A stretch of 64,000 nt of DNA from Patescibacteria group bacterium (GCA_041667185.1 JBAYFM010000001.1:32052-96051), one strand, 5' to 3'; positions 22,217 through 48,820 are shown, counted from the stretch's first letter. Made by a program: numbers and translations. The notes: generated from the letters alone by a model not told the origin.

Positions 22217-22909
22217 ATGCAAGAAAAGTTTGTCGAACAATCCGGCTGTCGGCTGAGATATCTTCAGCAAGGGGAGGAGCCGGTCTGGCTCATTCATACC
22301 GGCACGCACGGCGATGAGCAAGCGGTCATTGATTCCGTCGGGCGTTATTTGCGTTCGCGCGCCGGGGTCTTGCCGGATCTGATCTGGGTGCCGGAGACAA
22401 GTCCGTCGGCGGTCGCGCGCGGGACGCGCCTGAATGCGCGGGACGTGAATTTGAACCGGGTCTTCTATGACGATGCGGAAGAGCCCGAGGTGCGGGCTAA
22501 TCTGCGTCTGCTTGCCGGCCGGAGCTTCCGTCATTTTTTGTCGGCCCACGAGGATCTGACCACGGATAAATTTTATCTGTACGAGCAGGACGATAATTCG
22601 GCGACGCCGGAGTTCGCGCGCCTGTACGCCGGACTCGCCGCGCTCGGCATCGGCCTGTACGAGGGTCTGGATGACGACGATCCGGTGCTCGGCAATGACA
22701 TCAAACGCGGATATTTTTTCAGCCGCACATCGCGGCGCCCGAACGGCGTTCTCGATGGCACGGTCGAAGGGTATGTCGGGTTCAACCGTTTGGCGTCGGG
22801 CAAGATCATCACCGCCGAAGTGCCGGGGCGGCTGCCTCAGGAAAAGAAGGATGCCGTGGTGGCGCTGTTGTTCGAATATTTGGCTGGGAGTGACGGAGTC
22901 AGGGAGTGA
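22217..22909 (+). CDS. M14-type zinc carboxypeptidase / succinylglutamate desuccinylase-aspartoacylase family (MpaA-like)
   Basis: IHTGTHGDEQAV (HxxE zinc site) in a ~230-aa AstE/AspA-type fold. The stop codon lies inside a dispersed repeat copy. Confidence 0.55.
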   Translation: MQEKFVEQSGCRLRYLQQGEEPVWLIHTGTHGDEQAVIDSVGRYLRSRAGVLPDLIWVPETSPSAVARGTRLNARDVNLNRVFYDDAEEPEVRANLRLLAGRSFRHFLSAHEDLTTDKFYLYEQDDNSATPEFARLYAGLAALGIGLYEGLDDDDPVLGNDIKRGYFFSRTSRRPNGVLDGTVEGYVGFNRLASGKIITAEVPGRLPQEKKDAVVALLFEYLAGSDGVRE

Positions 22910-22998
22910 CGGAGTCATTAGAACTTCAAAGCGCATAAAAAAGAGCGGGATATTATCCCGCTCTTTTTAAATTTACTTCGTCTCTCCCTGACTTCGCA
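22886..22998. repeat. MITE-like dispersed repeat copy (family R1) containing a bidirectional terminator
   Basis: Left end gggagtgacggagtcagggagtgacggagtc; internal terminator aaaaaagagcggga-tatt-atcccgctcttttt; right end tctctccctgacttcgca, the inverse of gagtcagggag. Confidence 0.5.
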
Positions 22999-23006
22999 TC
23001 TTCTGC

Positions 23007-24092
23007 CTACTGCACGAACGGCCCCACGAACTCGATGCTTGCGTCCGGCTTGATGATCGTCTTGCCGCCGATAGGGATGAGCAGCGGATTCTTCGTCACG
23101 CCGTGGCCGAAGTTCGTGACCATGAGTACGGGCAGCGGGTCGTTGCTTTCGATGCGATCCTCCAGGACCTCGCTCAGCAGATATTGGATGTAATGCGGCG
23201 CCGATTCGGTGGTGAATTCGCCGCAGTTGGCGGCGTTCGGCGTTACCGGCGCGGGGTTCGCCGCCGGCGCGGCTCCTGGCACGGCGGGCGCCGGAGGCTG
23301 GCCGAAGATCTGGTCATATTTGCGTTCGGCGCTGGCGTAGTCCTTGTCGTCCATACGGCCGATGACGATCGCTCGGAGTTGCCGGAAGACGCGGCGCTGG
23401 TCGAGCGCGATGACGATGCGATGGAAATCCTCGGCGTCGAGATCAACGTCCTCCATGAACAGGATGAATGGTTTCCAGGAGGCCGAGCCGTAGCGGCAGA
23501 CGTCGAGCATGTCGCGGAAAGTCTCCAGATTGCCGCCGATGGCGATGCCTTCGATCGGTTTCGTCGGCGGGGGACAGGTCAGCCAGCGGCTGCCGGGTTC
23601 GTTGAAGGAGAAATTCTGGGTCCGGCCCTCGATGACGTCGAAGAAGAGCTGGTGGTTGTCGTGCGAGAAGATACCGCCGGCGTTGGCGTAATGGAACGTC
23701 AGCAGGTCAATCTCGAAATAAAGATGATTGATGAGGAAAGTCGTGTCGCTGAAGCCGTTCACGATCGGCGCCTGCTTCTTGATGACCTTCAGATCCTCTT
23801 CGGAGAGATGCCGGACGATGTCGCCGCAGCCGGTGCCGCCGTAGATCGGCAGGAGCCAGTTGGCGTTCTTCGAAGCCGCGCGGAATTGCTTGAGGCGTTC
23901 GCGTTCGGAGGCCGCGAGATAGCGCGGGTCGAGTTCGTGCCGCTCGACGTCGTAGACCTTGGTCTTCGGGTAGGACTTGGTCAGTCTTTTCACCGCCGCC
24001 TCGAAACCATGAAGATCGCTGCGTCCGACCGGGGACGAAGTATGCACGAGATTGATCTGGCTGTCGGGCGTCAGGCGCTTGGGGAGCAGCAT
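23007..24092 (-). CDS. LD-carboxypeptidase (peptidase S66, LdcA/MccF-like)
   Basis: VNGFSDTTFL (the GFSDxT serine motif) in an S66 fold, with a C-terminal Pro/Ala-rich stretch. Confidence 0.7.
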   Translation of the reverse strand: MLLPKRLTPDSQINLVHTSSPVGRSDLHGFEAAVKRLTKSYPKTKVYDVERHELDPRYLAASERERLKQFRAASKNANWLLPIYGGTGCGDIVRHLSEEDLKVIKKQAPIVNGFSDTTFLINHLYFEIDLLTFHYANAGGIFSHDNHQLFFDVIEGRTQNFSFNEPGSRWLTCPPPTKPIEGIAIGGNLETFRDMLDVCRYGSASWKPFILFMEDVDLDAEDFHRIVIALDQRRVFRQLRAIVIGRMDDKDYASAERKYDQIFGQPPAPAVPGAAPAANPAPVTPNAANCGEFTTESAPHYIQYLLSEVLEDRIESNDPLPVLMVTNFGHGVTKNPLLIPIGGKTIIKPDASIEFVGPFVQ

Positions 24093-24096
24093 AATA

Positions 24097-24672
24097 TCAG
24101 TCTTTAGGGTAAGCGGTGAGACCGTCTTTGCGGCGGGCTTCTTTTTCGGCGGCGTTGGCGTATTCGTGAGCGTCGTTGTAGCACTTGCCGCGTTTCATGA
24201 GCGCATACTCGAACAGCTCGTGGACCGCGATGTATTTCAGTTCCGGTCCGGCCGCCGCTGAATCGAGCCAGATCTCGTTTTTCGGGACGTACTTGTAAAC
24301 CAGGTTGTGTCCGCCGAAGAAAAAATCCGGGTCCAGGTGGCGGCGTACGGCCGGGCCGTCCGCGAGATAGATCTTGAGCTGGCCGTGTCGGGCCAAAAGC
24401 TCGAGGCGGCAGCGTTGCGGCAGGTCGCGATTGAATTTATCCGGACGCAGCAAGGCTTTGGCTTTTTCCCAGCCGAATTTTTTCACGAGCCGCTTCTTGA
24501 TCCTGTAGACATGCAGCAGAAAATCCTTTTCCGGCAGAAAATACCGCTCCAGCCAGAGTTGGCCGGGCTTCACGTACGGATAGATGTCTTGGTCTCCCAG
24601 AGCGCAAAATTCGATGTCCTGGGTGTTGCGGATTTTGAAACCGTCGACGATCTTGAGCTTTTTGGCGGCCAT
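24097..24672 (-). CDS. Hypothetical protein (possible HExxE-type minimal metalloprotein)
   Basis: No clear family; contains IAVHELFEYALMK. Its stop abuts the LdcA-like start, suggesting an operon. Confidence 0.35.
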   Translation of the reverse strand: MAAKKLKIVDGFKIRNTQDIEFCALGDQDIYPYVKPGQLWLERYFLPEKDFLLHVYRIKKRLVKKFGWEKAKALLRPDKFNRDLPQRCRLELLARHGQLKIYLADGPAVRRHLDPDFFFGGHNLVYKYVPKNEIWLDSAAAGPELKYIAVHELFEYALMKRGKCYNDAHEYANAAEKEARRKDGLTAYPKD

Positions 24673-24840
24673 ACTGATAATAGCGCTTATTTTAGCTTAG
24701 TATCAGCTCTTCAATCTTTAAATACTGTGGGTTGATCGTAACCTGTTTTGGCCTTAAAGTCAACCCTGAGGATCAGGCCGAGGCAGTGGCCGTGATTGCG
24801 CTTAATGCTGAAATTGGTATATTTCCCGGGTCAATGCGTT

Positions 24841-25977
24841 ATGGAATTCAAACTTTTGAAGCGTTCGCGGCATAGCCGGGCCCGGCTCGGCATCCTGAAG
24901 ACGGCTCATGGCGAGGTTGAGACCCCGGCCATTGTTCCGGTTGCCACCCAGGCTACGGTCAAGACGCTCACTTCGCGGCAGGTCGAGGAGGCCGGTTGCC
25001 AGCTGCTCATCTGCAACACGTTCCATCTGCACTTGAAACCCGGCGAGGAAGTGGTGAAGCGCGGCGGCGGGCTGCACGGGTTCATGAACTGGAAGCGGCC
25101 GCTCATGACCGATTCCGGCGGCTACCAGGTGTTCAGTCTGGGCTTCGGCCGCGACCTCGGCGTCGGCAAGATCGCCAAGCCCGGTTCGGCGAAGCGCGTG
25201 AAGAGCGGCCAGCAGCCGCACCTCCTGAAGATCGACGAGGACGGGGTCTGGTTCACGTCCTACATCGACGGGCGCAAGGTGTTCATCGGGCCGGAGGAAT
25301 CGATCCGCATCCAGCAGGCGCTCGGCGCGGACATCATTTTCGCGTTCGACGAGTGCACGGCGCCGTCGGCCGACAAGGCCTACACCAAAAAATCGCTCGC
25401 GCTCACTCACCGCTGGGCGGCGCGCTGTCTCGCCGCGAAGAAAGGGGAGCGGCAGGCGCTCTATGGCGTCGTGCAGGGCGGCCGCTTCGAGGATCTGCGG
25501 CGCGAGAGCGCGCGGTTCATGGCCGGACTGGATTTCAACGGTTTCGGCATCGGCGGCGAGTTCGGCGACGACAAGAAAGCGATGGGCCGGATGATCCGCT
25601 GGGTCACGGACGAACTGCCGGAAGCGAAACCGCGGCACCTGCTGGGCATCGGCCATCCCGACGATCTCGTCACGATCGTCAAAGCCGGGGCCGACACTTT
25701 TGATTGCACGGCGCCGACCCATTACGCCCGCCACGGCACAGCCTTCGTTTCGAATGGCCGTCTCGATCTGAACCAGAGCCGTTTTCTCAGGGATCGCCGG
25801 CCGCTCGATCCGCGTTGCGGCTGCTTCGTCTGTGCTGAGCACACGCGGAGCTACCTGAGTCACTTGATCCGCGCCAAAGAGGTCGCCGGCATGGTGCTGC
25901 TCACCAGCCATAATCTGCATTTTTTCAACGGCTTGGTCGCCGACATCCGGCGGCGGATAAAGAAAGGCCTGTTGTGA
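24841..25977 (+). CDS. tgt: Queuine tRNA-ribosyltransferase
   Basis: LICNTFHL, FDEC and the zinc site CGCFVCAEHTRSYLSHL. Confidence 0.9.
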   Translation: MEFKLLKRSRHSRARLGILKTAHGEVETPAIVPVATQATVKTLTSRQVEEAGCQLLICNTFHLHLKPGEEVVKRGGGLHGFMNWKRPLMTDSGGYQVFSLGFGRDLGVGKIAKPGSAKRVKSGQQPHLLKIDEDGVWFTSYIDGRKVFIGPEESIRIQQALGADIIFAFDECTAPSADKAYTKKSLALTHRWAARCLAAKKGERQALYGVVQGGRFEDLRRESARFMAGLDFNGFGIGGEFGDDKKAMGRMIRWVTDELPEAKPRHLLGIGHPDDLVTIVKAGADTFDCTAPTHYARHGTAFVSNGRLDLNQSRFLRDRRPLDPRCGCFVCAEHTRSYLSHLIRAKEVAGMVLLTSHNLHFFNGLVADIRRRIKKGLL

Positions 25978-27020
25978 GCGTCGCTTTGAGCCTGAAAAAA
26001 ATGCTGCAGCGGTACGATTACGATTTTCCGCCGGAGCTCATCGCCAAGGAGCCGGCGTCGCCGCGTGATGCCGCCCGGCTTTTGGTCTATCGCCGCGCCA
26101 AAAAAGACATCGTTCACGCGCGCTTCCTCGATCTGCCCGGCCAGCTGCCGCCCGGTTCCGTGCTGGTCTTCAATGAGACTAAGGTCGTGCCCGCACGGCT
26201 GGTGCTCCGCAAGCCGACGGGCGGCAAAGCCGTCCTGCTTTACGTTGACCGCGCCGGCCGCGATCTGCGGTTCATGGCCGATCGCCGGCTGGAGATCGGC
26301 TCGACGCTGACGCTCGACGCGCGCCATCATTTCAAGATCACCGGTCAGCAGGCGAATTTTTATCTGCTGCGGCCGCTTTTTCCCATGGCGCGTTTTCCGG
26401 GACTCCTGGAACGTCACGGCTTGACCCCGCTGCCGCCATACATAAAAGACTCGCCGCTCACGGAAGCCCAGGCGCGCGAGAAATACCAGGCGGTCTTCGC
26501 GAAACGCCGCGGGTCGGTCGCCGCGCCCACGGCTTCGCTGCATTTTACCGGGCGGCTGCTCGCCAAGCTCCGCCGGCGCGGTTTCGACGCGCGGTTCGTG
26601 ACCTTGCATGTCGGGCTCGGGACTTTCGCGCCGGTCACGGAAGATCACTGGCGCCGCGGCCGCCTGCATCGCGAGCGCTACGAGATCGATCCGGCGACGG
26701 CCAGATTCCTTGAGCGCGCCAAGCGGCAGGGGAGGCCGATCGTCGCCGTCGGCACCACCGTGGTCCGGACGCTCGAGTCGGCGGCGGACGACCGCGGCCG
26801 TCTCCGCCAGCTCCGCGGCGACACCGACCTCTTCATCCGCGAGGGCGCGAAGTTCCGGTTCGTGGACGCGCTCGTCACCAATTTCCACGTGCCGCGTTCG
26901 AGCTTGCTTATGCTGGTCTCGGCTTTCGCCGGCCGCCGCGAGGTCCGGAAATTATACAGGCTGGCGATCGCGGAAAAATACCGCCTGTTCTCGTTCGGCG
27001 ACGGCATGCTGATCGTCTGA
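25974..27020 (+). CDS. queA: S-adenosylmethionine:tRNA ribosyltransferase-isomerase
   Basis: QueA family over its length (…PLPPYIKD…, VGTTVVRTLES). The GTG start overlaps the tgt stop. Confidence 0.85.
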   Translation: MSVALSLKKMLQRYDYDFPPELIAKEPASPRDAARLLVYRRAKKDIVHARFLDLPGQLPPGSVLVFNETKVVPARLVLRKPTGGKAVLLYVDRAGRDLRFMADRRLEIGSTLTLDARHHFKITGQQANFYLLRPLFPMARFPGLLERHGLTPLPPYIKDSPLTEAQAREKYQAVFAKRRGSVAAPTASLHFTGRLLAKLRRRGFDARFVTLHVGLGTFAPVTEDHWRRGRLHRERYEIDPATARFLERAKRQGRPIVAVGTTVVRTLESAADDRGRLRQLRGDTDLFIREGAKFRFVDALVTNFHVPRSSLLMLVSAFAGRREVRKLYRLAIAEKYRLFSFGDGMLIV

Positions 27021-27123
27021 CGTCCGGTCGTCAGCTGGTCGGGGCTGCGGAGATACCTTATTCGGTCATTCTGTAATATACTGTTCCTGATAAAGCGCTG
27101 GGCCGACCAGCCCGGCGAAATCT

Positions 27124-29481: not shown

Positions 29482-29499
29482 CAGTTTCAGCCTGTGGTA

Positions 29500-29513
29500 T
29501 AATTTTGTCGGCT
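29500..29513 (+). promoter_or_regulatory. Extended -10 promoter (tgtggTATAAT) for the hydrogenase operon
   Basis: cctgtggtataatttt lies about 30 nt upstream of the ferredoxin gene ATG. Confidence 0.45.
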
Positions 29514-29544
29514 TTAAATAATCTTTTTTAAACGTGAAAAAACT

Positions 29545-29823: not shown

Positions 29824-29832
29824 TCTTCGGCT

Positions 29833-31071: not shown

Positions 31072-31083
31072 CCGACATTTTTT

Positions 31084-34579: not shown

Positions 34580-34951
34580 TCAGCCATTCATCAGCGAATT
34601 TCGGATGAAGTCGAGCGCTTTCCGCAGCTCTATGCCTGGCGGCAGGCCGATGATGCGGAGATTTTTCAGTCGTCCGAGTTTTTGCAGCCATTTCAGGTTG
34701 GCGTAGGCGTCGAAGTCATGCGTAGTGAGGCGTGGCGCGGCGGCGAAGGCGTCCAGGGAAGCGAAGATGCGCGGTTCGGCGATGCCGACGACTGTGTCGA
34801 TGACGGTCAGTTCCGACGGCACCTCCCACTCTTCATTCGGATCTTTTATTTCAAAAACAACGTCCGGTCGGAGTTTTTGGAGTTCTGGAATAAGTTTCAG
34901 CGGCAGGGAATCTTCCGGTAGGTCGGGATTTCCGAAAATATAGACGATCAT
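34580..34951 (-). CDS. [NiFe] hydrogenase maturation endopeptidase (HybD/HoxW/HycI family, peptidase A31)
   Basis: Starting at ATG 34951, MIVYIFGNPDLPEDSLPL..LTVIDTV..TTHDFDAYANLKWLQKLG..LRIIGLPPG aligns with HybD. The three metal-ligand positions (E, D, H) are conserved. Confidence 0.65.
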   Translation of the reverse strand: MIVYIFGNPDLPEDSLPLKLIPELQKLRPDVVFEIKDPNEEWEVPSELTVIDTVVGIAEPRIFASLDAFAAAPRLTTHDFDAYANLKWLQKLGRLKNLRIIGLPPGIELRKALDFIRNSLMNG

Positions 34952-34952
34952 A

Positions 34953-34994
34953 AAAGTGCTGAAGTTGGGGAGTGCTGGAGTGCTGAAGATTGAG
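34953..34994. repeat. R1-family repeat copy (inverted partner of 35395-35430)
   Basis: aaagtgctgaagttggggagtgctggagtgctgaagattgag. Confidence 0.5.
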
Positions 34995-35351
34995 TTATCC
35001 GACCTGTTTAGCAAGTGCCGCCAGTCCAGCGCAAAGACCCTCATAGCGGCAGATCAATCCGGCCGCCTCGGTTTCTGATAAGAATCCCAGGTCTTTGGCC
35101 AGGAGAAGAAAGTATTCGGTTTCTTTCGCCGACCCGCGAGCGATGGAAAGGAAATTTTTGAACTCTTTTTTACCGGAACGTCCGTAGCCTTCAGCGATAT
35201 TGGCGCCGACTGATGTTGTTGAGCGTCGAATCTGTTGTGTAAGTCCGAATCTTTCTGTCATCGGAAAGGAGCTGGTGACCCGGTAGATCGACAAGGACAA
35301 GGCGCGGGCCTCTTTCCAGACGCGAAGGTTGCGGTGAGCACTATCGGTCAT
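34995..35351 (-). CDS. Four-helix-bundle protein (TIGR02436; the 23S rRNA intervening-sequence-protein family)
   Basis: NLRVWKEARALSLSIYRVTSSFP...RSTTSVGANIAEGYGR...SAKETEYFLLLAKDLGF: diagnostic family motifs. About 118 aa from the ATG at 35351. Confidence 0.75.
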   Translation of the reverse strand: MTDSAHRNLRVWKEARALSLSIYRVTSSFPMTERFGLTQQIRRSTTSVGANIAEGYGRSGKKEFKNFLSIARGSAKETEYFLLLAKDLGFLSETEAAGLICRYEGLCAGLAALAKQVG

Positions 35352-35394
35352 ACGCCGCCGGACGTTGCCCCACCTGTCTAAAATAGTCAAATCT

Positions 35395-35430
35395 CCGGCA
35401 CTCCAGAACTTCAGTACTTCAGCACTTGGT
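35395..35430. repeat. R1-family repeat copy
   Basis: ccggcactccagaacttcagtacttcagcacttgg, the inverse of the 34953 copy. Confidence 0.5.
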
Positions 35431-36161
35431 CAGATCGTCTTATTGGCGAGGGCAATGTGTTGTAGAGTGTATTTCCTCAATTGGGCCGCCTGCGCTTCGG
35501 AAATCACCTCGCAGGGCACGCCCCAGTGGACGCTCACGAGTTCGCCAGGCTGGATCTGTTCGATGTCCGAGCGCGCCTCGAGGCTGCGCCGGACCTGGCG
35601 TTTCGCCGGCTCGCCGAGCGCCAGTTTACCGCTGATCAAGAGCAGTGGTTCGGTCTCGATCATGATATTCGGACCGTCAACTTCCAGCACTTTGCCCCAG
35701 CTGATGCGGCATTCTTCCATGCTCTCGAGCGTGTGGGCGATCGGTAAATGCCCGGTCCGCTTCCAGATGTCGAGTACGTGGAAGGAGTGATGCGGCATGG
35801 CACCCTTGGCGATCTTGTCCTCGACCAGTTCGAACGAACGCGCATCAAGTTTCTTTTTCATCTGCAGGTTCTCGGCCAGGTGGCGGTGCAACCGTTGTTT
35901 GCCGACATTCTCCAGAAGTTCGTTGCCGATCCAGTAAGCCTCGACCACGCGGTCGTCGAAGGGGTCGCGGACACCGTTCGCGGCGGCGATAGTCGCGAGA
36001 TAGGGGAACATCGTGGCGAAACCGCGCATCAGCGCCGCAAGTCCGGGATCGGTCGCACCTTCGTTGATGTACGCCAAAATCTCCTGATTGGCGTCAGGTC
36101 CGCAATAATGCAGGCGATTCGGTCCGAAAGCGTAGCGGCTGCAGCGGAGCACTCCGTCCAT
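35430..36161 (-). CDS. Conserved hypothetical protein
   Basis: 243-aa ORF (RCSRYAFGPNRLHYCGPD...) with no family assignable from sequence alone. Confidence 0.35.
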   Translation of the reverse strand: MDGVLRCSRYAFGPNRLHYCGPDANQEILAYINEGATDPGLAALMRGFATMFPYLATIAAANGVRDPFDDRVVEAYWIGNELLENVGKQRLHRHLAENLQMKKKLDARSFELVEDKIAKGAMPHHSFHVLDIWKRTGHLPIAHTLESMEECRISWGKVLEVDGPNIMIETEPLLLISGKLALGEPAKRQVRRSLEARSDIEQIQPGELVSVHWGVPCEVISEAQAAQLRKYTLQHIALANKTI

Positions 36162-36746: not shown

Positions 36747-36809
36747 GCAGCGTCAGATAAGATATCGGAACAACCCGGCTCATCAGCCGGGTTGTTTGTT
36801 CAGGCGTCG

Positions 36810-36912
36810 GAGAGTGCAGAAGCAGGGGGTTCGGGAGTGTGGTAAAATACAGTTAAGTGCTGGGTGGATCACAAATCAGGTCTCCCGCACTCCTTCACTC
36901 CCGCACTCTTTC
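36810..36912. repeat. R1-family repeat copy upstream of nrdJ
   Basis: Left end ggagagtgcagaagcagggggttcgggagtgtgg; right end tctcccgcactccttcactcccgcactc. Confidence 0.45.
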
Positions 36913-36915
36913 TCT

Positions 36916-38739
36916 ATGTCCCCAGAAGACATCATTCCGTTGATCAGCGACAATGCCCGGCTCGTGCTTGAGTCGCGATATTTGCTGCGGGACTCGAAAG
37001 GCAAACTGATCGAGACTCCAGCCCAGCTCTTCCGCCGCGTAGCGCGGGTGATCGCGGTCGAGGAACGGCATTATGGCGCGACGGCGGCCGAGGCCCGCAA
37101 CTGGGAGAATCTGTTCTACGCCATGATGGCGCACGGCGAGTTCTTGCCGAACACGCCTACGCTCATGAACGCCGGCGCCTCGCTCGGCCAGCTTTCGGCT
37201 TGCTACGTCATTCCGATCAAGGACTCGGTCGACAGTATTTTTGACGCGCTCAAAGCCGCGGCCGAGGTCCATAAGTCTGGCGGCGGCACCGGCTTCGATT
37301 TCTCCGAGATCAGGCCGCGCGGCGATCTCGTGCGTTCGACCGGCGGCATCGCTTCCGGCCCGGTCAGCTTCCTGCATATCTTCGACGCCGTGACCGACGT
37401 CATCCGCCAGGGCGGCAAGCGCCGCGGCGCCAACATGGGCGTGCTGCGCGTGGACCATCCGGACATCCTGGAATTCATCGAGGCTAAGTTGCATGACGAA
37501 TGCCTGCGCAACTTCAACGTTTCAGTCTCGGTCACGGACGCTTTCATGCGCGCCGTCGCCGCCGGCCGGAACTACAAATTATACAATCCCCACACCGGCA
37601 AGGTCGCGGCTGAACGCCCGGCGCGCGAGATCTTCGACAAGATCGTGGCCGCGGCCTGGCGCACGGGCGACCCGGGTATCCTCTTCATCGACGCGATCAA
37701 CCGTCTGAACCCGACGCGCCACATCGGTCCGATCGCTTCCACCAATCCCTGCGGCGAAGTGCCGCTCCATCCCTGGGAGTCCTGCAATCTCGGCTCGATC
37801 AACCTGTCGAAACTGGTCGCAGGCGAACCGCTCAGCGGCAAATTCGACTGGCTCCGGCTCAAAGGGCTGGTCCACGACGCCGTCCGTTTCCTTGATGACA
37901 TCATCGACGCGAATCGTTTCCCGCTGGAGCAGTGCGCCGCCGCCGCCCGAGACAATCGCCGCATCGGTCTGGGCATCATGGGTTTCGCCGAGGCCCTGAT
38001 CCATCTCGGCATTCCGTATGATTCCGATGAGGCGTTGAAGTTCGCTGACCGCTTGATGGGCTTCATCGAGCGCGAGGGCCACGCCGCTTCCGCCGAGCTC
38101 GCCCGGCAGCGCGGCAGCTTCCCGAATTTCCGCGGTTCGCTCTGGCAGAAGCGGGGAGCGAAACGGATGCGCAACGCCACGATCACGACGATTGCGCCGA
38201 CGGGGACGATCTCGGTCCTGGCCGGCTGTTCATCCGGCATCGAGCCGTTGTTCGCCGTTTCTTTCGTCCGGCACGTCCTTGAGGGTCAGCATCTCGTCGA
38301 GACCACGCCGCTGTTCCGCGAGGTCGCCAAAAAACGCGGCCTCTGGAACACCGAGCTTGAACTCCGCGTCGCGGCCAATGGCTCGGTCCAGGACGTGGAG
38401 GGTCTGTCCGCCGCGGAGAAGCGGATCTTCCGGACCGCGCACGAGATCAATGTGGCGCATCATGTCCGGATGCAGGCGGCTTTCCAGCGCCACACCGACA
38501 ACGCCGTCTCGAAGACCATCAATCTGCCGGAGACCGCCTCGCCAGCCGAGGTCCGCAACGCCTATCTCGAGGCCTGGAAATTGAAGTGCAAAGGCATCAC
38601 CGTCTATCGCGACGGCAGCAAGACGAATCAGGTGCTCACGACCGGCGCGGCGGCGGGCGGCAAGAAGGACCTCGTCGGCGCTGGCAGCGAATACGCCGGC
38701 GGCTGTCCGGCCGGCGTGTGCGCGTATATGCCGACGTGA
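36916..38739 (+). CDS. nrdJ: Class II (adenosylcobalamin-dependent) ribonucleotide reductase
   Basis: TPTLMNAG, ACYVIPIKDSVDSIF, SGGGTGFDFSEIRPRGDLV and a C-terminal Cys pair. 608 aa; no intein. Confidence 0.85.
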   Translation: MSPEDIIPLISDNARLVLESRYLLRDSKGKLIETPAQLFRRVARVIAVEERHYGATAAEARNWENLFYAMMAHGEFLPNTPTLMNAGASLGQLSACYVIPIKDSVDSIFDALKAAAEVHKSGGGTGFDFSEIRPRGDLVRSTGGIASGPVSFLHIFDAVTDVIRQGGKRRGANMGVLRVDHPDILEFIEAKLHDECLRNFNVSVSVTDAFMRAVAAGRNYKLYNPHTGKVAAERPAREIFDKIVAAAWRTGDPGILFIDAINRLNPTRHIGPIASTNPCGEVPLHPWESCNLGSINLSKLVAGEPLSGKFDWLRLKGLVHDAVRFLDDIIDANRFPLEQCAAAARDNRRIGLGIMGFAEALIHLGIPYDSDEALKFADRLMGFIEREGHAASAELARQRGSFPNFRGSLWQKRGAKRMRNATITTIAPTGTISVLAGCSSGIEPLFAVSFVRHVLEGQHLVETTPLFREVAKKRGLWNTELELRVAANGSVQDVEGLSAAEKRIFRTAHEINVAHHVRMQAAFQRHTDNAVSKTINLPETASPAEVRNAYLEAWKLKCKGITVYRDGSKTNQVLTTGAAAGGKKDLVGAGSEYAGGCPAGVCAYMPT

Positions 38740-38935
38740 GGAGTGGGGAAGTGCGGGAGAGACGGAGCCACGTCGTTCGCGAACGACGTGACGGAGCCGT
38801 GTCGCTCGCGAGCTATACGGCGGAGTGCTGGAGTGCGGGAGTGCAGGAGAGCTGAAGGTTTGAGATCAAACTCCAGCACTTCAGAACTTCAGTACTCCAG
38901 CACTCCCACACTTAATCTCTCCCTGACTCCGCAAC
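38740..38935. repeat. R1-family repeat copy (largest) with nested palindromes
   Basis: Left end ggagtggggaagtgcgggagagacggagcc. Contains the perfect 22-bp palindrome cacgtcgttcgcgaacgacgtg and an inverted pair ggagtgctggagtgcggg / cactccagcactcc. Right end tctccctgactccgca. Confidence 0.55.
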
Positions 38936-41997: not shown

Positions 41998-42003
41998 GTC
42001 TTT

Positions 42004-42037
42004 CCGCCCCCGCCCTTTTTGGGAGGGGCGGTTTTTT
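42004..42037 (+). terminator. Rho-independent terminator
   Basis: ccgcccc-cgccctttttgggag-gggcgg-ttttttt. Confidence 0.6.
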
Positions 42038-42127
42038 TATCTGGCCAAATCGTCTCGCAGCCGTTATCATTTCTTCAGCGAGAAAATTTGGCGGCGCGTT
42101 ATTTTTGCGGCGCTATCCGATGAGTCT

Positions 42128-42397
42128 ATGGCCAGACATTATGACATCAAGGTCCGCGGCCGGGTCCAGGGCATCTATTTTCGTCTGGCCGCGAAAGAGC
42201 TGGCGCAGCGGCTGCTGCTCGCTGGCCACGTCAAGAACGAATCCGACGGCAGTGTGAGCGTCGCGGTCGAAGGGGAAGCGGCCGCGCTCGAGACTTTCGC
42301 AGCCTGGTGCCAGCGCGGGCCGGAGCAGGCGACGGTCAAGGAAGCGGTCGTGACGGAGGGCGAAGTCGTCGGCCTGACGCAGTTCCGCATCTTGTGA
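42128..42397 (+). CDS. acyP: Acylphosphatase
   Basis: VRGRVQGIYFR...AGHVKNESDGSV: acylphosphatase signatures in an 89-aa protein. Confidence 0.75.
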   Translation: MARHYDIKVRGRVQGIYFRLAAKELAQRLLLAGHVKNESDGSVSVAVEGEAAALETFAAWCQRGPEQATVKEAVVTEGEVVGLTQFRIL

Positions 42398-42465
42398 ACG
42401 GCTTCGGCTGGCGGGGCCGTCATGCTATCCTATATATAAGATGAAAGCAGGGGGAACTTCCGAAT

Positions 42466-43047
42466 ATGACCGAGCGCAAGCAAAGGATCCTGGTCGCCGC
42501 GGCGATCCTGCTCGTCGGTCTGGCCGGCGTCGCGATCCTGGCGGCGGTCAGCGGGACGGCGGCGAAAAAGACCATTAATCCTATCATCGGCAGCGGTCAT
42601 ATGAAGATCACCAGTCCGCAATTCGAGCAGGATGGCGCCATCCCGGCGCGGTACACCTGCGACGGGGAGAACATCAATCCGCCGTTGCGCGTGAGCGGCG
42701 TGCCGGAGGAAGCCCGGACGCTGGCGCTCATCGTTGACGATCCGGATGCCGCGGCCGGCGCCTGGACCCATTGGACGGTCTGGAATATTCCCGCCGCCGA
42801 TATCGTCGAGATCGGCGAGAAGTCCGTGCCGGGAGGAGCGGTCGAAGGCCTGACTGATTTTGGCCGCGCGGGTTACGGCGGTCCCTGCCCGCCGAGCGGG
42901 GAGCATCGTTATTTTTTCCAGGCGTACGCGCTGGACGCGGAATTGGAGCTGACCGCCGCAGCCGGCGTGAAAGAGCTGGAAGCGGCCATGCGGGATCATA
43001 TTTTGGACAAAGCCGGTCTCATCGGGGTTTACCGGCGGCAGCCATGA
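42466..43047 (+). CDS. YbhB/YbcL (PEBP/RKIP) family protein with N-terminal anchor
   Basis: GEHRYFFQAYALD, the PEBP signature. Confidence 0.75.
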   Translation: MTERKQRILVAAAILLVGLAGVAILAAVSGTAAKKTINPIIGSGHMKITSPQFEQDGAIPARYTCDGENINPPLRVSGVPEEARTLALIVDDPDAAAGAWTHWTVWNIPAADIVEIGEKSVPGGAVEGLTDFGRAGYGGPCPPSGEHRYFFQAYALDAELELTAAAGVKELEAAMRDHILDKAGLIGVYRRQP

Positions 43048-43200
43048 ATTCTCGGCCGCCGGGCGGAGCGTCAGCCGCCTGATGTGGGGATAAATCGTCT
43101 GGCCTGATAGCCAAAAAAAGGTTATTATGGCTTATCGCTGGTCTCATCGGCCGGCTTAACTGAGTTAAATCAAGGGATTCTATTTATTTTTTACAGCTTT

Positions 43201-43965
43201 ATGATCCACGAAGAACAGCAGTCGGCCCGCGCTTTGACGCTCTCGCCGAAGATGAGTTTCATCCTGGGCATCGTCGGCGGAATCTTGGTCTTCTGCACCA
43301 TCGGTTTTTTCATCCTGTTGTCCATCGTCCTGAAGGGCAATATCGTCCCGGCGGAGAATAAACAGCCGGCTCCGGCTGCCGCCAACGTCAACGATCAGGC
43401 CGCGGCTCCGGCCGAACAGCCGGGAGAACAGGTCGGCGAGGTCGCTCCGGTCACGAGCGATGATCATGTTCTCGGCGACGTCAACGCTCCGGTCACGCTC
43501 ATCACTTACACCGATCTCCAGTGCCCTTACTGCGAGAAATTCCACACGACCATGCAGCAGGTCATGGCTGATTACAAGGGCAAGGTCCGCTGGGTCTATC
43601 GGCATTTCCCGCTGTCGTTCCACCCCTTCGCCATGCCGGCCGCGAACGCCGCGGAATGCGCCGCGGAGCAGGGTAAGTTCTTCGAGTTCGCCGACAAGAT
43701 CTTTGCCGACCAGGCGAACATCGGCACCGCTCTCTTCGACAAGATCGCGGTCGAGCTCAAGCTGAACAAGTCCAAGTTCGACAGCTGCGTCAAAACCAGC
43801 AAGTATCAGGCTCGCATCGACAATGATCGCACGACCGGCGGCGCGGCTGGCATCAGCGGTACTCCCGGAACGATCATCCTGACCGCCGACGGCGGCAAGC
43901 AGCTCATCCCGGGCGCCCTGCCTTACGAGAGCGTGGCTGGCATGATCGACAGTGTGCTGAAATAG
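43201..43965 (+). CDS. DsbA-like thioredoxin-fold protein, membrane-anchored
   Basis: CPYC active site (LQCPYCEKFH) and an N-terminal TM helix. Confidence 0.7.
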   Translation: MIHEEQQSARALTLSPKMSFILGIVGGILVFCTIGFFILLSIVLKGNIVPAENKQPAPAAANVNDQAAAPAEQPGEQVGEVAPVTSDDHVLGDVNAPVTLITYTDLQCPYCEKFHTTMQQVMADYKGKVRWVYRHFPLSFHPFAMPAANAAECAAEQGKFFEFADKIFADQANIGTALFDKIAVELKLNKSKFDSCVKTSKYQARIDNDRTTGGAAGISGTPGTIILTADGGKQLIPGALPYESVAGMIDSVLK

Positions 43966-44109
43966 AGCGAGACGATCCGCGTGACCTTCGACCGACCCGG
44001 CCCAGCGCCGGGTCGGTTTGTTATCTTGGCGGAGGGGGGTGTCGCTTGACGGTCAGTGTCTTTGCCGTTACTTTGCCAACAGCTCTTTACCATTCCAAAG
44101 GAGAACCAC

Positions 44110-44559
44110 ATGGAACTCGCGGAAATGCGCGCGACAGCGAAACGACTTGAGCGCCGACGCGTGTGCTGGCTGATCGCGACCCTAGCGTCATATCTGGTGA
44201 CCGGCGTCAGCCTTGGCGCCATCTTTTTCGCCACCAGCGATCAGCGACCGGGATCGGTAGCGCCTGCGATCATCCTGACGGTGTTCGTGGGCGGCATGAT
44301 CCTGATGAGGAGCTGCGTCGGTCGGACCACAGCTGTTTACAGGCAGATCAAACTGCTCGAAGCGGTCGTTGCCGAAGGGGAAGTGGCCCGCGTCGAGGCG
44401 TTCCGCATCACCCCTGACAATCAGCCGGTATACCGCGTCCATTTTTCCGATGGCCGCTTGCACGAGGTCAACGCCATCCTTCCGGTTTTCGTCGGCGCTG
44501 GCCAGCATGTCCGGATGTTCGAGAATGGTCTGGGAAGACACCGTTTCGAACGGATCTGA
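44110..44559 (+). CDS. Hypothetical membrane protein
   Basis: AAGGAG lies 6 nt before ATG 44110. Two TM helices. A terminator is at 44641-44672 (gaggctcctcagcctc plus T-run). Confidence 0.35.
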   Translation: MELAEMRATAKRLERRRVCWLIATLASYLVTGVSLGAIFFATSDQRPGSVAPAIILTVFVGGMILMRSCVGRTTAVYRQIKLLEAVVAEGEVARVEAFRITPDNQPVYRVHFSDGRLHEVNAILPVFVGAGQHVRMFENGLGRHRFERI

Positions 44560-44812
44560 TCCGGCAGCGGGATTTTTCCAGCTTTGCCGTCGGATCATCA
44601 TGGACAGCTCGAAAAATCGCCTTTCAAGCCAGCCTGGTCTTCGAATGAGGCTCCTCAGCCTCATTTTTATTTTCAATTAGCGCGTTTTTCGGCCGCGCCA
44701 CGGTTGACTTTTTCGGCCGTTTCGTCTATACTCAAGCGCACGTCGAATATTATAGCCAAAGGATCGCGCCCCGCCGCCGCGCGCGGGACTCCGGCCTAGC
44801 CGCAGATAACGT

Positions 44813-46633
44813 ATGGATCACAAGGAAATTCGCAACATCGCCATCATCGCCCACGTCGACCATGGCAAGACCACGCTCGTCGACGCGTTATTGAGGCAAT
44901 CGCACGCCCTGAAGAAGGACGTCGGCGGTGAATTGATCATGGATTCCAATGATCTGGAACGCGAGCGCGGCATCACGATCTTCTCCAAGAACGCCGCGGT
45001 CGAATATCAGGGCGTCAAGATCAACATCATCGACACTCCCGGCCACGCTGATTTCGGCGGCGAGGTCGAGCGCATCATGCGCATGGTCGACGGCGCCATC
45101 CTGCTCGTGGACGCCAAGGAAGGCCCGATGCCGCAGACCAAGTTCGTCCTCCGGAACGCCATCAAAGCCGGCCATAAGATCATCGTGGTCATCAACAAGA
45201 TCGACAAGCCGGAGGCCCGCGTCGAATGGGTGCTGAACAAGACCTTCGACCTGTTCGTCGAACTCGGCGCTTCGGACGAACAGACCAATTTTCCCGTGCT
45301 GTACGCTTCGGGCGTCAAGGGTCTGGCCGGTCTGGAATCGGATCTCGACAAGATGACTGACATCCGGCCGGTGTTCGACACCATTCTCGAGGTCATCAAA
45401 CCGGCCCGGGCGGAGATGGACAAGCCGCCGCAGATGCTCACGGTCAATCTGACTTACGACAATTTCAAGGGCAAGATCGCCATCGGCCGCCTGTATTCCG
45501 GCACGCTGCGCAAAGGTATGGAGGTCATGCATATCGCGCGCGACGGTAAGATGAAGAAGGTCAAACTGACCGGCGTCATGTCTTTCGAGGGGTTGCAGCG
45601 CGTGGATCGCGACGAGGTTTACGCCGGCGACGTCGTCGCCGTGGCCGGCATTCCGGACGTGTCCATCGGCGAGACCATCTGCGATGTCGAGCACCCCGAG
45701 GCGCTGCCCATCATCGCCATCGAAGAACCGACGGTCAAGATGACCTTCGGCATCAACACGTCGCCGTTCTCCGGCCAGGAAGGCCAATTCACCACCTCGC
45801 GGCAGATCAAGGAGCGGCTGGAGCGCGAACTCGAGACCGATGTGGCCCTGCGCCGCTTCGAGACCGAATCCATGGATCGCTGGACTCTGGCCGGCCGCGG
45901 CGAGCTGCACCTCGCCATCCTCATCGAGAAGATGCGCCGCGAAGGTTTCGAACTGGAGGTCTCCAAGCCCCAGGTCATCTTCAAGGAAGAGGGCGGCCGC
46001 AAACTTGAGCCTGTGGAACAGGTGACGATCGAGGTGCCGGAGGAGCACGTCGGCGTGGTCATCGAGAAGATGGGCCAGCGCCGCGGCGAGATGACGGATA
46101 TGCGCGTGGAGAACAAGACGGCCTATCTGGAATTCACCATTCCGACCCGCGGCCTCATCGGCTATCGTTCCCAGCTGCTCACCGACACCAAGGGGTTGGG
46201 CATCATGAATTCGCTGTTCCTCGGCTACGAGGATTACAAGGGTGATTTTGACGCCAACGCTCACGGTTCGCTCGTCGCTTTCGAGGACGGCGTGACGGTC
46301 ACTTATGGCCTGGTCGCCGCTCAGGAGCGCGGCCAGCTGTTCGTCGGTCCGGGCGTGCAGGTGTATGCCGGCATGGTCGTCGGCCAGAACGCCAAATCGG
46401 ATGATATCGAAGTGAACGTCTGCAAAGAGAAGAAGCTTTCCAATATGCGTTCCAAGGGTGACGGCGGCAGCGCCAAAGTGGACGTGCCGCGCACCATGGG
46501 TCTCGAGGATGCGCTCGAGTTCATCAGCGACGACGAGCTGGTGGAAGTGACGCCGAAGAACGTCCGCATCCGCAAGACGGTCCTGGATCATCTGGCGCGC
46601 AAGCGTTCCGAGCGCGACGCCAGCAAAGAATAA
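44813..46633 (+). CDS. typA: Translational GTPase TypA/BipA
   Basis: G-domain [22 protein letters not shown]; EF-G-like domains; 606 aa. Confidence 0.9.
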
Positions 46634-46737
46634 GTAATCACAAATCAGCCGGCAGCTAGTGGTTGGCAGCCGCTAGCTGCTTTGTTGCTGGTCGGGAGGT
46701 CGGCATCGTGGTAAAATTATCCTGTAACCGTTATCCT

Positions 46738-47172
46738 ATGACCAACCAAGAATCCAAAAAGATCACTTGCGAACATCTCCAGAAGCTGCGCACCGGCGAG
46801 TTGGAGCATATCGTGCTGGACGTGCGCGATGAGGCTGATTTCGAGACTGGGCACATCACGGATTCGATCCATGTCCCGGCGCGTGAGCTTGAGACCAATC
46901 TGCCGAACCTGCTTACGAACAAGGAGCGCAAGGTGGTCGTGGTGGTCGGTCCGACGCAGGAAGCCGAGATCGAGCGCTTGCATGAGCAGTTGGCCGGTCT
47001 GGGTTACAGCAACGTCGAGTTCCTGGCCGGCGGTATCGACCGCTGGTGCGAGATCGCGCCGCTCGAGATTGAGCCGGAACTGGTCGAGCTGACGCCTGAG
47101 GAATCCGGGTTCGTCGGCGATGAACTGAATGAGATCGATCCCGAGGGCAAGGACAACGAGCCGCTGATGTGA
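46738..47172 (+). CDS. Rhodanese-homology domain protein (probably catalytically inactive)
   Basis: Rhodanese fold (LDVRDEADFETGHITDSIHVP...FLAGGIDRW). The active-site loop lacks a Cys (VVVVVGPTQEAE). Confidence 0.55.
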   Translation: MTNQESKKITCEHLQKLRTGELEHIVLDVRDEADFETGHITDSIHVPARELETNLPNLLTNKERKVVVVVGPTQEAEIERLHEQLAGLGYSNVEFLAGGIDRWCEIAPLEIEPELVELTPEESGFVGDELNEIDPEGKDNEPLM

Positions 47173-47364
47173 GTTGAGCCGCCGCCGTGGGCGGCAGGGG
47201 AGCGTGGTTAGTCCGGTACAAGCTGGTTTTGTCAAAGACTCTTGACAAAACATCAGAAATATGATAACGTCATTGCGAGTGTCAGGTCGATTTTAAGCGC
47301 CCTTCCGAGGGCGTTTTTTTGTTTTTGTTCAGCCAAGAAACGGCATTTTTAGAGAACTCGCGAA

Positions 47365-47400
47365 ATTGAATCCGGGCCCTAGCAGTGCTATAATTTGAAT
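47365..47400 (+). promoter_or_regulatory. Promoter TTGAAT-17-TATAAT for the GH1 gene
   Basis: attgaatccgggccctagcagtgctataatttg. Confidence 0.5.
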
Positions 47401-47410
47401 AGCTTGTCAT

Positions 47411-48754
47411 ATGTCAGACGCTGCTGTTACAGCCGAAAATCGCCTCCAAGGGCTGGATTATCTCTCAGAATTGCCCCAGGTCCGGCCGCACAACCACGAA
47501 ACGCGGTTGTTTCCGGATGGTTTTTTGTGGGGCAGCGCGACCTCGGCGCATCAGGTCGAGGGCGGCAATGTGCTGAACGATTGGTACGGATGGGAGAAGA
47601 TCCCCGGGCATATCGTGGACAGGACGGTTTCCGGCAAGGCTTGCGACCACTACCATCGCTACGAACAGGATTTCGATCTGGCCGCGGAGCTCGGTCAGAA
47701 CGCGCACCGCTTGTCGGTGGAATGGTCGCGGCTGGAGCCGCAGGAAGGGCAGTGGGACGTCGACGAATTCGTCCATTACCGGCGAGTGCTCGAATCGCTG
47801 AAACGCCGCGGCATGAAAGTGATGCTCACGGCCTGGCATTTCACGCTGCCGCAATGGTTCGCGGCGCGGGGCGGCTGGCAGGCGCGCGATGCCGTCCGGC
47901 TCTTCTCCAGGTTCGTCGAGAAACTGGCCGCGGAGTACGGCGATCTGGTCGACGTCTGGGTCACGATCAACGAGCCGATGGTCTACCTGTCAAATTCCTA
48001 CACCATCGGCGTCTGGCCGCCGGGCCAACGTTCCGGCTGGTCGACCTTCCGGGTCTTCCAAAAATTGGTCCAGGCGCACCGTGCGGCCTACAAGACCCTG
48101 CATCGCCGCCTCGACCGCCCCGGCCGCCGGGCGCTCGTCGGCATCTCGCAGAACGTGATCACGTTCGAGCCGTACCGCAAAGGCTCGTTGGTCGACGCAG
48201 TGTTCGTCTGGTTCGCGGACCGGGTGTTCAACCGGCAGTTCTTCATCTGGACCAAGGGGCGCCATGATTTCATTGGCATCAATTATTATTTCCATTACCG
48301 GGTCAAATACGTTCCCTGGAAGGTCTCGCAGTTCTTCTACGAGGTGCACACAGAGAACCGCAGCGTGAGCGATCTGGGCTGGGAGATCAATCAGCAGGGC
48401 ATCTTCGAGGCGATCATGAACATGGCACGCTACAAGCTGCCGATCTACATCACCGAGCACGGCGTGGCCAACGCTGACGACAGCAAGCGGCCGCGGCTCC
48501 TGGTCGCCGGCATCATGGAGATCTACCACGCGATTCGCGCCGGCGTGGATGTGCGCGGTTATTTCCACTGGTCGCTCTTGGATAATTTCGAATGGGAAAA
48601 AGGCTACTCCGGCCGTTTCGGCCTCGTGGCCATCGATTACGCTAATGGCCAACGGACGCCACGCCGCAGCGCTTACATCTATCAGGACATCTGCCGGGCG
48701 AACGGTATGCCGCATCAGCTGCTCAAGTTCACGGGGCACGGGATCAGGTGGTGA
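47411..48754 (+). CDS. Glycoside hydrolase family 1 beta-glucosidase
   Basis: FLWGSATSAHQVEGG; TINEPM (acid/base Glu); ITEHGVA (nucleophile Glu). Confidence 0.85.
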   Translation: MSDAAVTAENRLQGLDYLSELPQVRPHNHETRLFPDGFLWGSATSAHQVEGGNVLNDWYGWEKIPGHIVDRTVSGKACDHYHRYEQDFDLAAELGQNAHRLSVEWSRLEPQEGQWDVDEFVHYRRVLESLKRRGMKVMLTAWHFTLPQWFAARGGWQARDAVRLFSRFVEKLAAEYGDLVDVWVTINEPMVYLSNSYTIGVWPPGQRSGWSTFRVFQKLVQAHRAAYKTLHRRLDRPGRRALVGISQNVITFEPYRKGSLVDAVFVWFADRVFNRQFFIWTKGRHDFIGINYYFHYRVKYVPWKVSQFFYEVHTENRSVSDLGWEINQQGIFEAIMNMARYKLPIYITEHGVANADDSKRPRLLVAGIMEIYHAIRAGVDVRGYFHWSLLDNFEWEKGYSGRFGLVAIDYANGQRTPRRSAYIYQDICRANGMPHQLLKFTGHGIRW

Positions 48755-48757
48755 TGA

Positions 48758-48820
48758 AGAGACGGAGTCAGGGAGTGCTGGAGTTGCGGAGCCGTCATTT
48801 TATTTCGTGTCGTCTCTCCT
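48758..48820. repeat. R1-family repeat copy
   Basis: agagacggagtcagggagtgctggagttgcggagccgtcattttatttcgtgtcgtctctcc; terminal inverted pair gagacg / cgtctc. Confidence 0.5.

Follow-up and report, generated by a model that had tools for sequence, protein, structure and literature searches.

Paired inverse arrays of tandem octamers on a Patescibacteria-group contig probably share the architecture of rRNA intervening sequences and short-tandem-repeat hairpins

What kind of element recurs between bacterial genes as a hairpin-capable sequence whose copies have their ends in common and almost nothing else? The question is raised by a 64,000-nucleotide stretch of DNA from a Patescibacteria group bacterium (GCA_041667185.1 JBAYFM010000001.1:32052-96051; this whole stretch is called the window, and positions without a locus name are counted from its first letter), in which a repeat family, R1, is found at intergenic sites between positions 22,886 and 48,820. 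A sequence-only reading had described R1 as six copies of a family akin to miniature transposable elements with inverted repeats (MITEs) or repetitive extragenic palindromes (REPs). We favour a different interpretation, to which we would assign a probability of roughly 0.6: R1 consists of foldback elements having the architecture of ribosomal RNA (rRNA) intervening sequences (IVSs) and of short tandemly repeated repetitive (STRR) hairpins, with a 5' arm of tandem octamers and a reverse-complement 3' arm, and is not a MITE defined by a transposase.

The modules of R1 are head-to-tail tandem octamers of the consensus G[GA]AG[TA]NNN, in runs of 3-13 units. When the three-unit pattern GRAGWNNNGRAGWNNNGRAGW was counted, 17 matches were observed in the window against the 0.01 expected from dinucleotide-preserving shuffles of the window, and all 17 fall on the sites of the sequence-only reading; for four units there were seven matches against 0.00. 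Tandem Repeats Finder independently reported a period of 8, with a 16-nt super-period at site 1 (22886-23006). The proposal of a dispersed, non-random intergenic family with inverted termini is therefore borne out, and its modules are present at all six places where they had been located, yet two of these (34953-34994 and 35395-35430) are not separate copies, being the two arms of one element. Modules of 17-20 nt are identical between sites and recur at no fewer than five of them. At each of the five window sites (5/5) a forward array is followed downstream by a reverse-complement array, an order by which each element reads alike on both strands, with a purine-rich 5' arm and a pyrimidine-rich 3' arm. 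Two types of array can be told apart: type A, in which GACGGAGT alternates with CAGGGAGW, is found at sites 1 and 5 and in the outer arms of site 4, while type B, made of GGAGTGCT, forms the arms of the cassette described below, the inner arms of site 4 (where it is nested within type A) and part of site 5. The elements measure 65 to 477 bp, and their interiors are mutually unrelated (a terminator, a gene, a promoter-like stretch, other hairpins, or almost nothing), so that only the arrays are common to them.

Several simpler identities for the arrays were considered. The layout is not that of a CRISPR array, as the octamer units abut with no spacers between them. Searches of Rfam, both at gathering thresholds and at a permissive E-value, returned only tRNAs and chance microRNA-like matches on the hairpin. 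Mimicry of Shine-Dalgarno sequences by GGAG is disfavoured by the GAAG variants, by the other unit types and by hosts poor in such sequences; a role of period-7/8 units as stop codons in three frames was rejected, many units having no stop triplet; and addition of units in the manner of telomeres is unsupported, no reverse transcriptase (RT) being present in about 83 kb of contig.

The two arrays that had been counted as separate copies, at 34953-34992 and 35392-35427, are the ends of one ~477-bp element around one gene, and are 82% complementary over 38 nt. This inserted cassette (34951-35429, minus strand) consists of an array, a gene and an inverse array. On the sense strand of the gene the 5' arm (35392-35427, minus strand) is AAGTGCT GAAGTACT GAAGTTCT GGAGTGCC GGAGA, and the 3' arm (34953-34992, minus strand) is, in plus-strand reading, AAGTGCT GAAGTTGG GGAGTGCT GGAGTGCT GAAGATTG. 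The gene (34995-35351, minus strand) encodes 118 amino acids from its ATG, within an open reading frame (ORF) that is open from a TTG at 35390 (118-131 amino acids), and its product belongs to the Pfam family 23S_rRNA_IVP (PF05635; E = 9.6e-37, 125.9 bits against a cut-off of 33.8 bits), whose members are referred to here as IVS proteins (IVPs); the other window elements are gene-less. A 118-amino-acid protein at NCBI that is 100% identical is named four-helix-bundle protein, and the PDB entries of its solved relatives, 2GSC and 2RLD, both contain five chains. In ENA the window forms part of a metagenome contig of 97.9 kb. By its sequence, then, the interval 34951-35429 is a complete IVS-type cassette with a predicted gene for a 23S-rRNA-IVS protein (a four-helix bundle, Avd-like). 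A gene of this family between paired arrays places the closest relatives of R1 among rRNA IVSs and STRR-like heptamer hairpins, and not among the MITEs and REPs that had been proposed. No rRNA was found within the window, and the cassette is not inside a 23S or 16S rRNA gene; nor is there an RVT domain in the window or contig or a long repeat of the template/variable type near 35 kb, so that the layout of a diversity-generating retroelement (DGR) is lacking beside the IVP gene. GC content at third codon positions (GC3) is 0.57 in the IVP gene against 0.75-0.83 in neighbouring genes, which fits a foreign origin. In RNA folding, both the minimum-free-energy and the centroid structure of the cassette close on the arms together with a host palindrome (z = -3.6).

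The cassette lies, co-oriented with the operon, between a DUF6390 gene (35430-36161, minus strand) and a conserved partner gene (34580-34951, minus strand). We used the window DUF6390 protein to fetch 80 related metagenome loci (about 560 kb; 56-87% amino-acid identity). With few exceptions the partner gene comes right after DUF6390 there, often with an ATGA stop/start overlap, and in none of the 80 was an IVP gene or a three-unit array found. In alignment, the junction of the relatives reads ...ACGATATGA... and that of the window ...ACGATCTGAcc[AAGTGCTGAAGT...IVP...ACTTCAGCACTT]ttATGATCG.... Since the junction is uninterrupted in the relatives, the cassette must have been inserted: some 477 bp were added precisely where the two genes of the operon meet in their stop/start overlap. 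In this respect the earlier view of R1 as mobile was right for at least one copy, a true insertion absent from 80 orthologous loci. The empty site in one relative (L126; loci other than the window are designated by L numbers) is a small palindrome, ACGAT-ATG-ATCGT, the bases of which extend the array stem in the window; the insertion went into the loop of this native palindrome. CTGA stands at one junction of the cassette and ATGA at the second, possibly a 4-nt (A/C)TGA target-site duplication, although both preserve a stop and a start codon and may therefore coincide by chance; the remaining copies yielded no empty site. A relative, L203, whose IVP is 86% identical, has a cassette at the same DUF6390-partner junction, also with GRAGTGCT octamers.

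Is this pairing of PF05635 genes with inverted tandem arrays a peculiarity of one contig? Besides the gene in the window, 21 PF05635 genes from several phyla could be evaluated, and 20 of them are bracketed by inverted tandem 7-8-mers, the exception being a doubtful case, a gene on Nostoc 7120 plasmid gamma that adjoins an ISL3 transposase. As a control, flank complementarity was scored for 600 genes in loci that had not been chosen for arrays; the median score was 17 and the 95th percentile 26, against 32-54 for IVP genes. Other high scorers were regulators with operator palindromes or genes beside tRNAs, and none of the non-IVP genes in this control had tandem units at its flanks. One of the bracketed genes, in Azospirillum lipoferum, is inside a 23S rRNA gene (Rfam LSU, 1020 bits) and so belongs to a true IVS, whose arms consist of GACRGAD heptamers. 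About 20 cases thus suggest that PF05635 genes may move together with arms of inverted tandem repeats and insert into hairpin loops.

The octamer itself was sought with a GRAGT scan for four units, using one genome per species, which gave at least 120 loci, in Planctomycetota, Bacteroidota, Cyanobacteriota, Verrucomicrobiota, Acidobacteriota, Desulfobacterota, Chloroflexota and other phyla. The order observed in the window recurs there: of 139 arrays among the matches listed, a strong inverse partner lies downstream in 36 cases and upstream in 3. The spacers of the array pairs, again among the matches listed, fall into two main classes, 20-110 nt and about 400-500 nt, and all those of the longer class enclose a PF05635-like ORF (L017, L074, L092, L109), as does an 889-nt spacer in L014. 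Arms can also enclose cargo other than an IVP gene, as seen in a metagenome-assembled genome (MAG) of Puia sp. (L021, 3695-4902), where a 346-amino-acid desaturase-like gene lies between near-perfect arrays of GGAGTATG (four units) and CATACTCC (five units), together with a further inverted stretch. In an uncultured bacterium (L093) three short octamer elements (3061-3180, 6308-6419 and 7019-7138) have in common a conserved 40-nt spacer and the outer flanks of a second repeat (GATTGAAA), and behave as a multi-copy MITE with nested arrays.

A GGAGT core conserved across phyla, which such a scan might seem to imply, is an artefact of the search pattern, since IVP cassettes that were not selected in this way use many other units. 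In L055 the IVP flanks are GGGTGYT and GGGTTTC units, homologues fetched by protein identity have CAGTNNT, GCTRCTR, AGTGATM, AGCKNTC or GTGAACR, and the flanks are GGGTGTR in Nostoc punctiforme and GGTTYAA in Riemerella. Nor is there a code by which an IVP would specify its unit, as this was ruled out by the identity matrix of the IVPs: those of L109 and L055a are 65% identical and have different units, while IVPs only 35-40% identical share GGAGT. The IVPs of L074 and L014, from Anaerolineales and Planctomycetota, are 72% identical and have the common unit GGAGTGTG, a hint that the cassette may have been transferred together with its arms between phyla.

Three further groups of loci may be mentioned here. 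On a plasmid of Picosynechococcus sp. PCC 7003 (L226, 640-1100) cas10/cmr2 and cmr3 are separated by an IVP gene that has octamer arms of its own, GGAGATAA / TTATCTCC. IVP genes have been reported as CRISPR-associated (PMC3936711; PMC10910872), and at least some of these, the cmr2-cmr3 case being an example, may be such insertions, possibly selfish ones. In Acidobacteriota (Terriglobales; L205, L206, L209, L210) cassettes with GCTRCTR heptamer arms and diverged IVPs occur at the dprA-topA junction in several genomes, which points either to an ancient insertion passed on vertically or to a preferred site. In three samples of one locus (L215, L216, L217) a CCGTTCA array of at least 20 units, with assembly gaps, follows the IVP gene on its 3' side, and the distance from that gene to the next differs between samples, from 207 to 338 nt; the spread in length and the gaps indicate that the arrays are hypervariable and break assemblies. 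Unstable arm length is seen also on the window's own contig, where one element has arms of 4 and 13 units, so arms can be asymmetric.

How do these elements compare with systems already described? In Coxiella, a 28-bp terminal stem of the IVS is cut by RNase III, tandem heptamers (GACAGAT) lie upstream of the S23p ORF, and the number of heptamers differs between strains; it is because RNase III cuts such stems that an IVS is harmless in 23S rRNA (PMC4990558). The likeness to the rRNA IVSs with S23p/23S_rRNA_IVP genes (Leptospira, Coxiella, Xanthomonas, Brucella, Azospirillum) extends to the PF05635 ORF in the loop, the inverted termini that close a stem, arms composed of short tandem units (GACAGAT in the Coxiella IVS and GACRGAD in that of Azospirillum), the hairpin-loop site, the co-orientation with host transcription, the sporadic distribution and the lack of a mobility gene (PMC4990558). 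Unlike them, the window cassette has an operon's two protein-coding genes as its neighbours and the octamer GRAGTNNN as its unit, and the genome also has gene-less copies at mRNA 3' ends. For such gene-less repeats the obvious comparison is with the STRR sequences of filamentous cyanobacteria (PMC2670836) and the GGGAATC repeats of Xanthomonas, the latter occupying about 185 loci in each genome and forming 70-75 convergent pairs, mostly transcribed and conserved in position while variable in length (PMC4692102). Both, like R1, are intergenic, made of short head-to-tail units, often in convergent inverted pairs and capable of forming hairpins; R1 differs in having a unit of 8 nt instead of 7, a Patescibacteria-group MAG as host, and one pair that bounds an inserted gene cassette. 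The descriptions of STRR and GGGAATC repeats make no link to PF05635 genes or IVSs (PMC2670836, PMC4692102), and in the literature covered, which did not extend to Elhai et al. 2008 and Vioque 1997, we found no description of the octamer sequences or of a connection between IVPs and repeats. R1 is thus an octamer-unit variant, from the Patescibacteria group and located in an operon and at mRNA ends, of the poorly understood IVS/STRR-like foldback repeats. Eukaryotic Foldback (FB) transposons have long inverted termini composed of short tandem repeats in variable number, around a middle that is variable or absent. They are much larger than R1 and linked to a transposase when complete, and the likeness is of architecture only.

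One may also consider that R1 is, after all, a MITE or a doublet of REPs (REPIN), copies of which are moved by a transposase that is encoded elsewhere and recognises the GACGGAGTCAGGGAG / GGAGTGCTGGAGTGC termini. With such elements R1 shares small size, dispersal, intergenic non-coding position, often after stop codons, and inverted termini capable of forming hairpins; moreover, at least seven copies lie within about 83 kb of the contig, identical modules recur at different sites, and the cassette is present in the window and absent from relatives, with a possible duplication at its junctions. Much of the sequence-only reading stands (the family is dispersed, derived at least once by insertion, non-autonomous and overlaps terminators), whereas the shared interior, the fixed length and the GTAG head that define such families do not: the interiors are unrelated, the arms are arrays of 3 to 13 units that can be asymmetric, there is no clear target-site duplication, and the window arms have octamer arrays and no REP-type GTAG head at all sites inspected. 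Pfam scans of the window and contig, together with precomputed annotations, revealed no transposase, integrase, REP-associated tyrosine transposase (RAYT) or RT in about 83 kb, so that the cognate IS200/IS605 TnpA or RAYT that had been suggested as a search target was not encountered there, as may be the case near a non-autonomous element. Finally, a single sequence-specific transposase cannot account for a class in which other PF05635 cassettes use GGGTGYT, GGGTTTC, CAGTNNT, GCTRCTR, GTGAACR or GACRGAD, sometimes three types within 3 kb. We consider this explanation unlikely.

The remaining elements of the window are gene-less versions of the foldback architecture, located directly after stop codons, around terminator hairpins and before promoters. 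At site 1 the forward array (22886-22918, plus strand; GGGAGTGAC GGAGTCAG GGAGTGAC GGAGTCA, a type A array with the 16-nt super-unit) encodes the last seven codons (GSDGVRE*) and the TGA of the ORF at 22217-22909, codons that homologues do not have. That the array supplies the stop of this gene had been noticed before, together with an identification as M14 carboxypeptidase for which the match is weak: the ORF matches only AstE/AspA_cat, at 24.6 bits, just under the 25-bit cut-off. The loop between the two arrays holds a bidirectional intrinsic terminator (22938-22968), as predicted for 22936-22970, with a 14-bp stem, a preceding A-run and a following T-run. The inverse array (22975-23006, plus strand; ACTTCGTC TCTCCCTG ACTTCGCA TCTTC) ends 1 nt before the stop of a convergent LD-carboxypeptidase gene (23007-24092, minus strand), and the whole folds as RNA at -66.4 kcal/mol (z = -8.7).

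Sites 3 and 4 bracket nrdJ, as had been claimed, the inverse array of the former ending 4 nt 5' of its ATG and the latter beginning 1 nt 3' of its stop codon. The forward arm of site 3 is degenerate (36809-36842, plus strand; GGAGAGTGCAGAAGCAGGGGGTTCGGGAGTGTGG) and lies 3' of the terminator of a VKOR-like gene, its inverse array (36881-36912, plus strand; TCTCCCGC ACTCCTTC ACTCCCGC ACTC) leads up to the nrdJ start at 36917, and the loop between them contains a -10-like TAAAAT (z = -3.3 for the RNA fold). Site 4 is more complex: an outer forward arm (38740-38768, plus strand) is followed by the perfect 22-nt palindrome that had been reported for this copy (38769-38790; CACGTCGTTCGCGAACGACGTG), an inner forward array of type B (38822-38854, plus strand; GGAGTGCT GGAGTGCG GGAGTGCA GGAGA), an inner inverse array of five units (38869-38909, plus strand) that pairs with it over a 7-nt gap, and an outer inverse arm (38912-38935, plus strand; TCTCTCCCTGACTCCGCAACTC) that closes a multi-branch fold of -109.9 kcal/mol (z = -7.0). 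In both relatives that keep the nrdJ-VKOR-DUF6390 synteny (n=2) the arrays flanking nrdJ are absent. At site 5 the forward array (48756-48791, plus strand; GAAGAGAC GGAGTCAG GGAGTGCT GGAGTTGC GGAG) begins 2 nt past the stop of a GH1 gene, and only a short inverse remnant (48806-48822, plus strand; GTCGTCTCTCCTTCAAT) with weak pairing follows. A second sample (L002) showed no polymorphism, being 100% identical up to its contig end inside site 4. Downstream of the stop of the ORF at 62911-63372, the stretch 63373-63520 has ACGGAGCGGGGGAGAGA, a terminator-like hairpin with a T-run and CGACTCCTC; it may be a degenerate element and is too weak to call.

Ten kb beyond the end of the window the same contig (L220) has two further octamer elements. 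The first comes directly 3' of a ClpB-like gene and, as at site 1, has a terminator, here with a T-run, between its arms; the second, in which a 4-unit forward arm and a 13-unit inverse arm are separated by a 5-nt loop, lies before the promoter of hrcA and its operator, the controlling inverted repeat of chaperone expression (CIRCE). That promoter region (L220 17540-17600, about 70.4 kb in window coordinates), immediately 3' of the asymmetric element and 5' of hrcA-grpE-dnaK, has the form TTGACA-17-TATATC and is followed by a perfect CIRCE (TTAGCACTC-N9-GAGTGCTAA). The contig also has a solo array of the heptamer AGCCAGY, of about 6.5 copies, between a stop codon and a terminator (L220 12443-12490), with no inverse partner; the genome therefore carries more than one unit type.

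If R1 is read as foldback elements, its transcripts would have the form 5'-(GGAGUNNN)n...(NNNACUCC)n-3' from either strand, and the arms might close a stem of 30-40 bp. By analogy with IVSs, RNase III might cut such stems, which would make a cassette tolerable inside an operon or an rRNA and would let it sit between translationally coupled genes. Gene-less copies would act as 3'-end stem-loops, reinforcing terminators, protecting transcript ends or serving as processing sites, and the arrays would grow and shrink by replication slippage. As regards the role in termination or mRNA stability that the sequence-only reading had proposed, some copies do enclose terminators and fold strongly (z = -7 to -9), and protection of 3' ends would be a further, predicted function.

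Several observations weigh against this interpretation. If the stems were maintained for pairing as RNA, one would expect mismatches between the arms to be preferentially of the kind that G.U pairs allow in the sense transcript. Across 16 cassettes we counted 19 mismatches that are G.U-compatible in sense, 22 in antisense and 66 transversions, i.e. no RNA-specific signature, and a comparison of sense and antisense duplex energies (11/16 cassettes) was indecisive. Between the window cassette and that of L203, at the same site, no compensatory changes were found. With neither G.U asymmetry nor compensatory changes, no selection for pairing is visible in the stems. The fold of site 5 is no better than that of shuffled sequences (z about 0). 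The L218 orthologue of site 1 has a degenerate purine-rich run, the bidirectional terminator and an inverse run, which indicates that this element is old and not recently mobile. Lastly, the presence of apparent host terminators, and of a promoter-like stretch, inside gene-less copies is not accounted for by plain hairpin insertion; nested insertion into hairpin loops or symmetric growth around hairpins may lie behind it. Pairing may be only loosely constrained, or the units may matter as such, for instance as putative binding sites of a pentameric IVP.

The latter idea can be put as an explanation in its own right: a pentameric IVP, in the manner of TRAP on GAG repeats, would bind one 7-8-nt unit per subunit, as RNA or single-stranded DNA, in arrays such as (GGAGUGCU)n and (GGAGTGCT)n, and would regulate its own cassette as well as, in trans, gene-less arrays at other genes. 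The near-universal association of PF05635 genes with tandem units (20/21), the arms of typically 4-6 units and the five chains of 2GSC and 2RLD all agree with this, and recognition of units fits asymmetric arms and mismatches that are mostly transversions better than strict pairing does. Avd, a relative of the IVPs, is a nucleic-acid-binding cofactor of the DGR reverse transcriptase. The resemblance between PF05635 and Avd has been described (PMC10053308). The units nevertheless do not track IVP phylogeny, since IVPs 65% identical differ in their unit and others 35-40% identical share it; furthermore, the roughly 185 heptamer loci of a Xanthomonas genome have been described with no link to an IVP (PMC4692102). 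As a replacement for foldback elements of the IVS/STRR type we find binding sites improbable.

The weakest explanation, that the arrays are simple-sequence repeats formed in situ by polymerase slippage and template switching across hairpins, with neither element-like mobility nor function, draws on the over-representation of heptamer repeats in bacteria, ascribed to slippage (PMC4692102), on the variable array length, on the degenerate array at the L218 site and on the enclosure of host terminators in place of a common core, yet it is very unlikely, as slippage alone would not be expected to yield a discrete 477-bp insertion of foreign composition, modules of 17-20 nt that recur at at least five sites, a strict forward-then-reverse order or so consistent an association with a single family of genes.

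IVSs came to notice around 1990, and their origin, their mobility and the role of their ORF are unexplained, as are the STRR and GGGAATC repeats. The window brings together, under one architecture, an IVS-type cassette, its insertion into a protein-coding operon and gene-less tandem-repeat hairpins, and rRNA IVSs are thereby linked to a much wider class of insertions. It is tempting, though at present only a tentative and rather speculative generalization, to regard PF05635 genes with inverted 7-8-mer arms as a single phylum-spanning class that targets hairpin loops, of which rRNA IVSs would be a special case that happened to be noticed first, operon insertions such as the IVP genes between cmr2 and cmr3 further instances, and STRR and GGGAATC hairpins gene-less relatives, with the IVP acting on the arrays in mobility or in RNA handling. 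Questions that become testable are whether IVPs bind the repeats that flank their genes, whether RNase III cuts such stems in mRNAs, and whether hairpin loops are the targets of insertion.

Some other features of the window and of related loci are recorded here. The first 2,000 nt (1-2000) are a low-GC island, 44% against about 60%, with an ORF for a TrmB-family regulator (844-1671; GC3 = 0.38) that had no exact protein match in the assembly index; this is probably foreign DNA. Between 6418 and 7329 a 58-nt block, the end of which is the 3' half of tRNA-Thr (TGGAGCCACCTCGGGGAATCGAACCCCGG), occurs five times at spacings of 184-229 nt, with a terminator-like hairpin beside each copy. The region includes a tandem unit of 192 nt (2.2 copies with 93% matches). 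ARAGORN called the last block alone as tRNA-Thr (7254-7329), and the whole gives the impression of tRNA-Thr pseudogenes or fragments in a row. A direct repeat of 72 nt with no mismatch (10084-10155 and 10253-10324), the first copy of which overlaps the 3' end of tRNA-Gln (10044-10116), is reminiscent of the att-type duplications that integrative elements leave behind, but its copies are just 169 nt apart. In two loci (L179, 5902-6474, and L150, 1611-2183) a 190-amino-acid regulator-like gene has the same palindrome of about 32 nt (CATCAATATCTTGCCATGGCAAGATATTGATG) upstream and downstream, with no tandem units. Finally, about 65 nt 5' of mraZ (start at 63646) the sequence AAGTGGGGAT is repeated 2.3 times with a period of 10 (63559-63581), which resembles the direct-repeat MraZ operator.

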